A stretch of DNA of 10,559 nucleotides from IMG/VR virus record IMGVR_UViG_2526164631_000029, one strand, 5' to 3'. Made by a program: the position numbers and the translations under genes. Positions 7,548 through 10,559 of the stretch are shown here, one piece after another. Position 1 is the stretch's first letter, and every line of letters begins with the position of its first letter. This DNA comes from a virus (taxonomy: Duplodnaviria > Heunggongvirae > Uroviricota > Caudoviricetes). The notes under the pieces were generated by a model. It was given only the letters and a program-made list of their open reading frames with translations, was not told the DNA's origin and did not search any database.

Positions 7548-9119
7548 TTACTGAGAGCTCAGATCAACTTTCCAGGGCAACAGATCGCGTACCCGGTTTG
7601 CCGGCCAGTCCTGGATATGTTCAATGACGTAGCGCAGCCACTTTTCTGGCTCCACATTGTTCAGACGGCATGTGCCGATCAGCGAGTACAACACCGCCGC
7701 ATGTTCACCACCGCTGTCGGAACCCGCGAACATCCAGTTTTTCCGGCCTACGGCCACTCCCCGTAAGGCGTTCTCTGCGATGTTGTTGTCGATTTCCACC
7801 CAGCCATTACTGCAGTACACGTTCAGTGCATCCCACTGTTTCAGCAGGTATGCGAACGCTTTTGCCGTATCTGAGTGACGCGACAGTGTTTTCATCTGTT
7901 GCTGTATCCAGTCATACAGTGACTGCATCAGTGGCGCGGCTCTGGTTTTTCTTGCCGCCAGACGCTGTTCTGCTGAACAGCCCCGGACCTCTGCCTCGAT
8001 GGCATACAGTTCACCGATACGCTGCAGGGCTTCCGTGGTGATGTCGGTGGGCGCTCTTGCATGCACATCGTGGATTTTTCTCCGGGCATGAGCCATACAC
8101 GCGGCTTCCGTTATTCTGCCGGATTCGTATAACGCCCGGTAACCACCGTAAGCATCGGCCTGAAGCACACCGCTGTAACCGGCCAGGTGATTTTGTGGAT
8201 GGATACCTTTCCGGTCCGGACTGTACGCGAACCAGACCGCCGGGGGCATCTGTGAACCGGCGTTACGGTCATCACGGACGTAGACCCACAGCCGGGCTGT
8301 CCGGGTTTTACCGCTGCCCGGCTCCTGGACCGGGACGGGGATATCATCAGCATGGACTTTACCGGGCATCAGCACATACTGGCGCAGGACGTCATACTGC
8401 GGCTCCAGTAGTTCAGCAACGGCACCAGTCCAGCGCCCCAGTGTGGCACGGCTCAGCTCCACACCCTGACGGCGGTATATCTCTGACTGGCGGTATAACG
8501 GCAGATGGTCTGCATATTTTCCGGTGACGACATGGGCCAGGAGCCCCGCTCCGGCATAACTGCGTGCAATGGGTTTTGAAGGCACCGGTGCCTGCACGAT
8601 ATGGTCGCACCGGCAACAGGCCAGTTTCGGACGTTGTGTTTCGATAACCTTAAAGGCGCTGCTGATAAGCTCCAGTTGCTCTGACACATCACATCCCAGA
8701 GAACTGAGTTCACCACCACAGGCAGGACAGCATTCCTCTTCCGGCCGGATAACCCGGGTTTCACGGGGAAGTGAGGCCGGTAACGGTTTACGGGCTGAAG
8801 ACTGGCGCAGGGCGGATGGCAGTACCGGGTCATATTGCTCACCCAGCGTTTCCGCCATTTCTTCCTGAAGTGCGCTGATTCGCTCCTGTGCTTCCTGTAT
8901 CTGCCGTTCGGTTTTTGCACGAAGTTTTTCTGAGCTTTTACCGAACTGCATACGTTGCAGTTTCGCAACCAGCGCCTTCAGCCGGTTGATTTCGGAAGCA
9001 TAAGCCGCCACCCGCTGTGAGAGCAGGCGGTTGTATTCAGCCATCTGGCGTATGGTGTCCTGTTGCGTCTGCAACAGTGCCCGCAGGCGGGCGTTCTCAT
9101 GAGCAAGTGAGGTGTCCAT
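7548..9119 (-). CDS. tnpC: IS66-family transposase TnpC (DDE transposase with N-terminal coiled coil and zinc-finger-like Cys cluster)
   Basis: 523-aa ORF; N-terminal heptad-like region ([48 protein letters not shown]), Cys cluster CCPACGG...CCRCDH, and a long catalytic region typical of IS66 Orf3. Start ATG at 9117-9119 with GAGGA just upstream. Confidence 0.93.
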
Positions 9120-9138
9120 ATCCTCACTTTACAACGGG

Positions 9139-9486
9139 TTATATGCGGATTCCAGCGCGTTCCGTTCGTTTCGGGTGCTTCCAGTTGATACCTTCAAGAA
9201 GCATGGATAACTGAGCCGGAGTAAGGTGCACCTTGCCGTCACGGGTGACTGGCCAGACGAAGCGGCCCCGCTCCAGGCGTTTGGTGAAGAGGCACAGTCC
9301 GTCACTGTCAGCCCACAACACTTTTATCTGGTCACCCCGGCGTCCGCGGAAGATGAACAGGTGTCCGGAGAACGGGTCATCCTTCAGGACGTTCTGAACT
9401 TTTGATGCCAGGCCGTTAAAACCATTTCGCATATCGGTGATACCGGCAACCAGCCAGATACGCGAACCGGCAGGGAGAGATATCAT
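9139..9486 (-). CDS. tnpB: IS66-family accessory protein TnpB (Orf2)
   Basis: 115-aa ORF MISLPAGSRIWLVAGITDMRNGFNGLASKVQNVLKDDPFSGHLFIFRGRRGDQIKVLWADSDGLCLFTKRLERGRFVWP, characteristic of IS66 Orf2. Its ATG overlaps the tnpA stop (TGATG), indicating translational coupling. Confidence 0.93.
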   Translation of the reverse strand: MISLPAGSRIWLVAGITDMRNGFNGLASKVQNVLKDDPFSGHLFIFRGRRGDQIKVLWADSDGLCLFTKRLERGRFVWPVTRDGKVHLTPAQLSMLLEGINWKHPKRTERAGIRI

Positions 9487-10067
9487 CAGTGGCTGCTCCC
9501 TTTCATTTCGCGGATAAGTGTCTGTAATAACGCCGGCGTCAGTTTACCTTTAAGCCTGAGAGTTCCGGCCGGCAGAATCAGCTCACAACACAGACTGTCG
9601 GACGGTGTATTTATCTGCTCTGGTTCCTGTGCGGGGGCCGGGATTTTATTATCCGGCTCCGGCGTTAACGTCACGGGAAGCAGTACCGGCATATTTTTTC
9701 CGGAAGGCAGCAGGCCACCTTTCCGGTATTGATGGCGCCAGTTGAAGAGCAGGTTATCGTTGATTCCGTTTTCCCGGGCGATCTGCGCCACACAGGCTCC
9801 GGGCTGCAGTGACTGCTCCACTAAGGCGATTTTAAACTCATAAGGGAAGTTGGGCCGCCGGGGACGTTTTTTTATCACGGGGGCTTCGGATATAACGGTG
9901 TTTTCAGGACGTACGACTGGTACCGTGGAAAATTGTCCGTAAAGGCAGGCATCAAGTTCCTGCTCCGACATGCCTGCGGGCAAAGGCCACGAAAGGCCAG
10001 CTCTCCGAAAGCGCACGAACATATTACAAACTGTTGATTTTGGTACACCCAGGCGACGCCCGGCCAC
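9486..10067 (-). CDS. tnpA: IS66-family accessory protein TnpA (Orf1); 5' boundary uncertain, possibly disrupted by the IS2 insertion
   Basis: The supplied ORF starts at a GTG (10065-10067). It contains a helix-turn-helix-like segment (RRPNFPYEFKIALVEQSLQPGACVAQIARENGINDNLLFNWRHQYR) and a C-terminus (CCELILPAGTLRLKGKLTPALLQTLIREMK) typical of IS66 Orf1. The frame stays open upstream to the IS2 junction at 10131 with no ATG, so the true start may lie beyond the IS2 insertion. Confidence 0.8.
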   Translation of the reverse strand: MAGRRLGVPKSTVCNMFVRFRRAGLSWPLPAGMSEQELDACLYGQFSTVPVVRPENTVISEAPVIKKRPRRPNFPYEFKIALVEQSLQPGACVAQIARENGINDNLLFNWRHQYRKGGLLPSGKNMPVLLPVTLTPEPDNKIPAPAQEPEQINTPSDSLCCELILPAGTLRLKGKLTPALLQTLIREMKGSSH

Positions 10068-10131
10068 AACCCGGGGTAAATGTTCTTCAAAGTGAAGACG
10101 TAAAGCTTCAGTGATCCAGGTCCGGTGTTTC

Positions 10132-10172
10132 TGGATTTGCCCCTATATTTCCAGACATCTGTTATCACTTAA
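10132..10172. repeat. IS2 right terminal inverted repeat (IRR)
   Basis: Matches the recalled IS2 end beginning TGGATTTGCCCC; lies immediately outside the InsD stop codon (10143-10145). The exact inner boundary of the repeat is approximate. Confidence 0.8.
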
Positions 10173-10559
10173 CCCATTACAAGCCCGCTGCCGCAGATAT
10201 TCCCGTGGCGAGCGATAACCCAGCGCACTATGCGGATGCCATTCGTTATAATGCTCGAACGCCTCTGCAAGGTTCTTTGCTGCCGTTAACCCGTCTGGTT
10301 TGGGCATGATACTGATGTAGTCACGCTTTATCGTTTTCACGAAGCTCTCTGCTATTCCGTTACTCTCCGGACTCCGCACCGCCGTGTTCTTCGGTTCAAG
10401 TCCCAACATCCGGGCGAACTGGCGTGTTTCATTAGCCCGGTAGCATGAACCATTATCCGTCAGCCACTCCACTGGAGACGACGGAAGATCGTTGCCGAAG
10501 CGGCGTTCCACCGCTCCCAGCATGACGTCCTGTACTGTTTCACTGTTGAAGCCGCCGGT
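10143..10559 (-). CDS. insD: IS2 transposase InsD (OrfB), C-terminal portion; 5' part lies outside the window
   Basis: Translation [139 protein letters not shown] matches IS2 InsD as recalled. The frame is open to the window edge, so the Met at 10523 in the ORF track is internal, not the start. Confidence 0.93.

Follow-up and report, generated by a model that had tools for sequence, protein, structure and literature searches.

A complete IS2 copy at the tnpA start of an ISCro1-like IS66-family element in a lambdoid prophage of Escherichia coli O111:H2 strain 12A

The stretch of DNA analysed here, called the window throughout, is 10,559 nucleotides long; across its full length it is 100% identical to the E. 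coli O111:H2 strain 12A chromosome (NZ_CP077479.1), bar one nucleotide in a poly-T run. This run reads T6 in the window (6176-6181) and T7 in the RefSeq record of strain 12A. It is the sole difference over 10.5 kb, it lies in an intergenic stretch 3′ of an Ail/Lom-family gene, and it probably reflects a homopolymer sequencing difference between two assemblies of one strain. Three consecutive minus-strand genes of the window, in the order tnpA, tnpB, tnpC, strongly fit NCBIfam and Pfam profiles of the IS66 family. The intact tnpC (7548-9119) encodes a DDE transposase of 523 aa (NF033517, 477 bits), and the intact tnpB (9139-9486) encodes the 115-aa IS66 accessory protein (NF033819, 129 bits). 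What is present of tnpA (9486-10130; NF038385, 292 bits) runs from codon 2 (AAA, 10130-10128) to the stop, and is therefore the full coding body without an initiation codon. The tnpB ATG and the tnpA stop overlap as ATGA at 9484-9488. Pfam matches across the IS66-family genes are PF05717 (tnpB), PF03050 (tnpC, along with others), PF13817, PF13005 and PF13007.

The outer end of this element lies at 7518, where the right terminal inverted repeat GTAAGCGGCTCGTCAGAACCGTATTG (7518-7543, plus strand) begins GTAAGCGGCTCG... / GTAAGCGGCTCGTCAGAACCG.... The 8 bp CATGAACA at 7510-7517 directly precede this GTAAGCGG end and form one copy of the target duplication made by the element. An inverted-repeat search recovered no inverted copy of the IS66-type end GTAAGCGGCTCG... 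in 10068-10131, as an earlier reading made from the window's letters had held, and none elsewhere in 7000-10559, because the second end lies outside the window.

Adjoining tnpA is an IS2 sequence that shares the minus-strand orientation of the IS66-family element. The window holds the right-hand 428 bp of this IS2 (10132-10559, minus strand), whose 41-bp right inverted repeat (10132-10172, minus strand; length from PMC3299598) abuts the split tnpA. The IS2 right end at 10132 reads TGGATTTGCCCC / TGGATTTGCCCCTATATTTCCAGACATCTG..., and the five bases GTTTC stand directly before it at 10127-10131; both placements agree with the sequence-only reading. The IS2 transposase C-terminus falls in this part (ORF 10143-10523) and fits the rve and rve_3 profiles, and its stop codon, TAG at 10143-10145, is in frame with tnpA. 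As had also been noticed, the minus-strand tnpA frame stays open through the junction (stop, then GQIQKHRTWITEALRLHFEEHLPRVVAGRRLGVPKSTV / stop, then GQIQKHRTWITEALRLHFEEHLPRVVAGRR...), and the first in-frame stop upstream is that of the IS2 transposase itself.

The strain 12A chromosome locus, L001, was read past the window end; downstream of the poly-T run its coordinates equal the window position plus 1601, such that L001 11744 is window 10143. IS2 spans L001 11733-13063, a total of 1,331 bp with GTTTC on both flanks, and its ends read TAGACTGGCCCCC... and ...GGGGCAAATCCA. The left end closes ...GGGGGCCAGTCTA and is followed immediately by the second GTTTC (L001 13064-13068), which is separated from the first by the 1,331 bp of IS2 and bears out the proposal that the pentamer is the IS2 target duplication. 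Past it come 83 bp of the IS66-family element ending in the terminal repeat ...GAGCCGGTTAC, and then a second copy of CATGAACA (L001 13154-13161), directly past the left end of the element. Everything that had been looked for beyond the window (the IS2 left end, the second GTTTC, the remaining 83 bp, the terminal repeat and CATGAACA) was thus found.

When IS2 and one GTTTC are removed, the rebuilt IS66-family element is 2,699 bp long and is flanked by CATGAACA at both sides. Its right repeat GTAAGCGGCTCGTCAGAACCGTATTG and the displaced left end GTAACCGGCTCATTTAAACCGTCTGG are identical at 19/26 positions; both are imperfect repeats that begin with 5′-GTAA, as GTAAGCGGCTCG... at 7518 and as GTAACCGGCTCA... 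at the displaced left end. The 8-bp target-site duplication around the rebuilt element is of the size described for IS66 (PMC6778807). Within the tail-fibre region of a lambdoid prophage, the element inserted (window 7507-7517 and L001 13154-13161) into the gene overlap TGACATGAACA, between the stop of a tail-fibre N-terminal gene (TGA, 7507-7509) and the start codon (ATG) of the small gene that follows. By virtue of the 8-bp duplication CATGAACA, the downstream small gene keeps its ATG and is parted from its upstream context.

We call the IS66-family element ISCro1-like, a putative name that is taken solely from the PGAP label of its tnpC ('IS66-like element ISCro1 family transposase'). ISCro1, an IS66-family element that takes its name from Citrobacter rodentium and is frequent in E. 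coli, shares with it the tnpA-tnpB-tnpC order, the ATGA overlap, the GTAA ends and the 8-bp duplication; the present copy differs in being split by IS2 at the tnpA start, and a copy of ISCro1 in ST131 measures 2,824 bp (PMC8764528) as compared to the 2,699 bp found here. The sequence-only reading had named ISEc8, IS679 and relatives as the ISfinder entries to compare. PGAP applies the ISCro1 label instead, and TnpA shares just 59% identity with its counterpart in the IS679 copy at window 1-268. The interrupted element is therefore a different IS66-family member, although IS679 resembles it in its three-gene layout, in a GTAAGCG kind of end, and in a similar leader hairpin just 5′ of the tnpA ATG.

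IS2 generates a 5-bp duplication of its target, and five base pairs are duplicated both here (GTTTC on both sides) and around a second IS2 copy described below (TTAGA on both sides). Thousands of E. coli genomes hold annotated IS2 copies to which the present one is 99.9-100% identical over its full length. Its transposase CDS is joined from two pieces, with the PGAP note 'programmed frameshift', and it has the two overlapping ORFs with a programmed −1 frameshift and the DDE (rve) catalytic domain that mark IS2. Its length and its characteristic imperfect terminal inverted repeats are likewise those of IS2, described as a 1.3-kb element with 41/42-bp repeats (PMC3219604, PMC3299598). Compared with other copies of this IS3-family element in E. 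coli, the element itself is the same in every respect, and only its target, the start codon of another IS's first gene, is particular. In both elements all of the defining features that were examined, namely length, ends, duplication size, gene content and profile matches, are as they should be.

The near-identical strain FDAARGOS_1059 (NZ_CP066032.1) provides the uninterrupted state. It carries the same prophage segment at 99.9% identity, with the IS66-family insertion at the same prophage position and without IS2, and its match to the window ends at 10131. A single GTTTC stands there (...CCGGTGTTTCATACG... / ...CCAGGTCCGGTGTTTCATACGATAGTG...), and the site is colinear with both halves of the element in strain 12A, making it a true empty site. 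Aligned to strain 12A, the 2,699-bp element of FDAARGOS_1059 splits into two pieces at 100% identity over 4,035 bp (2,699 + 1,331 + 5), and it also has 100% matches to uninterrupted copies in several other E. coli genomes.

The locus is best explained by the simple insertion of a complete 1,331-bp IS2, with a 5-bp duplication, into a complete 2,699-bp ISCro1-like element, a reading to which we assign a probability of roughly 97%. Because the 5-bp and 8-bp duplications are both found and the near-identical strain is uninterrupted, the junction is not a chance resemblance. The insertion of IS2 into the 5′ region of the IS66-family element, as it had been proposed, is supported by both the L001 sequence and the empty site. 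Nothing was deleted, and the family-conserved TnpA body is entire downstream of IS2. The sequence shows directly that an ISCro1-like element in the prophage tail-fibre region received IS2 on its tnpA ATG, with duplication of GAAAC. The left terminal repeat, the 83-bp leader and the ATG now stand 1.3 kb off, beyond the window, with the tnpA body, tnpB and tnpC following the IS2 right end. No observation speaks against this structure.

The exact target can be read from the rebuilt leader, ...AATGGACACTATCGT ATG AAA CAC CGG ACC TGG..., which translates as MKHRTWITEALRL.... On the tnpA strand the IS2 target is GAAAC, comprising the G of the native ATG, AAA, and the C of CAC; it spans the last base of the start codon, all of codon 2 and the opening base of codon 3. 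As a result CAG now stands in the place of the ATG before the tnpA body. The ATG itself is retained on the displaced left fragment, where it opens an 18-codon ORF into the IS2 left end (MKLDWPPESPDNQYHLNK, then a stop), and together with the 83-bp leader it is parted from the tnpA body by 1,336 bp (IS2 and the duplication). The earlier suggestion that IS2 went in 'probably within tnpA' and took away its native start and upstream end can therefore be made more exact: the insertion is on the initiation codon, and the tnpA body is complete. An autonomous copy would have tnpB-tnpC directly joined to an intact tnpA that retains its own start, promoter and leader, and this is not the case here.

Two candidate tnpA ATGs can be considered, that of MKHRTW and that of MSIIFNGHYRMKH. 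The split ATG is favored as the native tnpA start, since the NF038385 model begins at the third residue after it (the H of MKH), with the full protein covering model positions 1-189/190, and since the annotated tnpA ATG of IS679 holds the equivalent position, 5-7 nt past the conserved leader hairpin. In uninterrupted copies the PGAP start is a different ATG (element nt 54), 30 nt upstream of the split one, and the protein is 225 aa long. Under this 225-aa model IS2 falls at codons 11-13 and not at the start codon, and the outcome is the same. Either start model has the gene cut off from its start codon, leader and left end, and the GTG at 10067 is in neither case the native start.

According to the ORF list, the first ATG, GTG or TTG after the IS2 stop codon is the GTG at 10065-10067, with none of the three in between, and by inspection no Shine-Dalgarno sequence is apparent before it. 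Because no canonical start precedes this GTG, the native TnpA would no longer be made. Some translation might still start at the GTG or at an internal ATG, and mRNA for tnpA could come from IS2 read-through, no terminator having been found. Loss of TnpA may also be felt downstream. In a passage that cites Han et al. 2001, one paper describes the ORFs of IS66-family elements as translationally coupled (PMC3469429); given this coupling and the ATGA overlap of tnpA and tnpB, loss of tnpA translation should lower tnpB too. Expression of tnpC is possibly lowered as well.

It is also conceivable that IS2 has rewired the genes behind it, with the outward −35 of its right repeat, or read-through from its transposase gene, now driving tnpA′-tnpB-tnpC. 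IS2 and tnpA are co-oriented with no terminator-like site between them, and the InsCD stop is in frame with tnpA, three codons before the old start position. The hexamer TGGAAA in the right repeat is presumably the outward −35. However, a consensus scan of 9900-10559, which spans the junction, found no promoter-like or terminator-like site, and the candidate −10 hexamers at 16-18 bp from TGGAAA (GAAACA, AAACAC and AACACC) each agree with the consensus at only 2/6 positions. The IS2 right repeat is described as bearing an outward −35 able to form fusion promoters, and the IS2 junction promoter as strictly requiring a 17-bp spacer (PMC9330008, PMC3299598). Given these −10 candidates, a fusion promoter at the IS2 junction appears unlikely, and the start codon and Shine-Dalgarno sequence missing before the GTG at 10067 further argue against productive rewiring. 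Taken as a whole, we consider this reading improbable.

With IS2 simply inserted into the tnpA start, as we prefer, the interrupted copy is probably unable to move itself. Han and colleagues are said to have found in 2001 that transposition of IS679 needs all three ORFs. Mobilization in trans, as a 4,035-bp composite, could nonetheless be imagined for the interrupted copy, because both of its ends are intact and the genome has other ISCro1-like copies, the element matching 15 places in the strain 12A genome.

The insertion appears in a lineage where IS2 has multiplied. IS2 occupies 17 places in the strain 12A chromosome as compared to 6 in the near-identical FDAARGOS_1059 chromosome. A second IS2 lies at L001 13566-14896, 502 bp beyond the left end of the first, in inverted orientation and identical to it at all 1,331 positions. 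Flanked by a TTAGA duplication of its own, this copy is missing from FDAARGOS_1059 and lies within the 3′ end of tccP2, an effector gene annotated as 'EspF repeat-containing protein'. From this second copy, the 17 versus 6 places, and the rarity of the junction described below, it follows that the insertion is recent and part of the IS2 expansion in the strain 12A lineage. The two IS2 copies bracket the 83-bp IS66-family left end and a small tail-fibre C-terminal gene, in a composite-transposon-like arrangement. Strain 12A and FDAARGOS_1059 each carry a 97,453-bp plasmid.

One could go further and suppose that the arrangement is functional. Transcription from the IS66 leader would enter IS2, and transcription out of IS2 would enter tnpA′-tnpB-tnpC, resulting in co-regulation or in a read-through InsCD-TnpA fusion; with the inverted IS2 502 bp away, a new composite mobile unit carrying the prophage tail-fibre C-terminal gene would also have arisen. 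We regard such a function as very improbable.

Another possibility is that the IS66-family element is truly truncated, its 5′ end having been removed from the genome by an IS2-mediated adjacent deletion or by recombination between IS2 copies. Nothing within the window contradicts this, as the window ends inside IS2, and the inverted second copy is close enough that it could mediate rearrangements. Yet the IS2 left end is followed by GTTTC, by precisely the 83 bp that are missing, with their terminal repeat, and by the 8-bp duplication, colinear with the uninterrupted sibling, leaving truncation with an extremely small chance of being correct. An assembly artefact, in which collapsed or mis-joined repeats produced the junction, fares no better. 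Both elements are multicopy, with 17 IS2 and 15 ISCro1-like places, and such repeats are where assemblers err. Against this, the 5-bp and 8-bp duplications are perfect and correctly placed, the 2,699 + 1,331 + 5 geometry is exact, and the chimeric protein encoded across the junction is recorded on 2 contigs. The window and the RefSeq record also share the junction; since a single base sets them apart elsewhere, they may be independent assemblies. We therefore think it exceedingly doubtful that the junction is artificial.

There is next to no likelihood that the GTG at 10067 is native, with 10068-10131 a normal leader or element end and IS2 merely adjoining a complete element. This GTG is the first start in the ORF list, and IS2 does occur just outside ISCro1-like elements in other strains (L003 and L004). 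However, 10068-10131 holds no terminal repeat, uninterrupted copies extend 83 bp past the junction, and the GTG-start ORF covers only positions 22-189 of the NF038385 model, losing 21 N-terminal positions that are encoded in 10068-10125. The sequence-only reading had named a native GTG as something that would overturn it; the native ATG instead lies upstream of the junction.

The junction is rare. With a 160-nt probe centered on it, we found it in a single piece in strain 12A only, or 1/5,426 complete E. coli genomes. The other matches with full coverage of the probe are in two pieces, and in L003 and L004 IS2 lies outside the element. Recurrent IS2 insertion at the same spot was considered for the two-piece matches (H57-H61) and for three-piece matches from a separate set of hits (H3-H8), and rejected, given that IS2 is external in L003 and L004 and that in L005 it is ISCro1 that lies within IS2. 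The inspected arrangements of L003, L004 and L005 therefore give no evidence of an insertion hotspot.

In L005 (NZ_CM144235.1) and its ETEC O25 relatives (H3-H8), a complete ISCro1 copy lies within IS2, with IS2 fragments on either side. These nested elements resemble the present case in that one IS targets another and each keeps its own target duplication; they differ in that the nesting order is opposite, while the strain 12A junction is confined to the 12A lineage. Insertion of the IS66-family element into IS2, as in these relatives, has virtually no chance of describing strain 12A, where IS2 is a contiguous 1,331 bp, identical over its full length to other copies and bearing its own 5-bp duplication, and it is the IS66-family element that is split.

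The insertion of IS2 at the tnpA start is hidden in the current annotation. RefSeq PGAP calls a 216-aa TnpA, WP_032162805.1, at window 9486-10136 (minus strand), and has it begin at an ATC (10136-10134) that belongs to the IS2 right repeat. This call presents a start-less tnpA as intact via a non-canonical start borrowed from the IS2 repeat. The protein is chimeric between IS2 and the IS66-family element, and just 2 contigs carry a record of it, as against 33 and 193 contigs for the native 215-aa and 225-aa TnpA forms. The exact 193-aa product of the GTG-start ORF is absent from the protein collection, and gene callers have therefore not recorded that form. WP_032162805.1 is best treated as an artefact of annotation, and a flag marking the gene as disrupted would be appropriate.

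Nested IS insertion is ordinary and already known, being routine in IS-rich pathogenic E. coli, and both of these well-described elements behave in standard fashion; the biological importance of the case is small. Its use is to illustrate, with clean resolution and an empty site for comparison, how one IS inactivates another. The junction can additionally serve as a lineage marker for strain 12A, and it exposes a RefSeq PGAP artefact that conceals the loss of the tnpA start. The locus also documents the IS2 expansion of the strain: two identical new copies stand 502 bp from each other, and one disrupts tccP2.

The window contains part of another IS66-family element. The sequence at window 1-268 (minus strand) is the left end of a separate element, IS679, whose end GTAAGCGCATC... 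starts at 268 and whose tnpA ATG is at 183-181. Both the ISCro1-like leader (L001 13069-13153) and the IS679 leader (window 184-268) have a short hairpin 5-7 nt before the tnpA ATG, ATGTCCAT...ATGGACA in the former and ATGTCC...GGACAT in the latter. Folding of the ISCro1-like leader is predicted to pair GUUUC (nt 30-34) with GAAAC (nt 86-90), the IS2 target and start-codon region (z = −2.4), and this modeled pairing may represent a structure that masks the start site. The whole predicted fold of the IS679 leader is no better than that of shuffled sequence. The host site of IS679 is a tail gene of a prophage; the annotation gives it as a C40 family peptidase pseudogene without its N-terminus.
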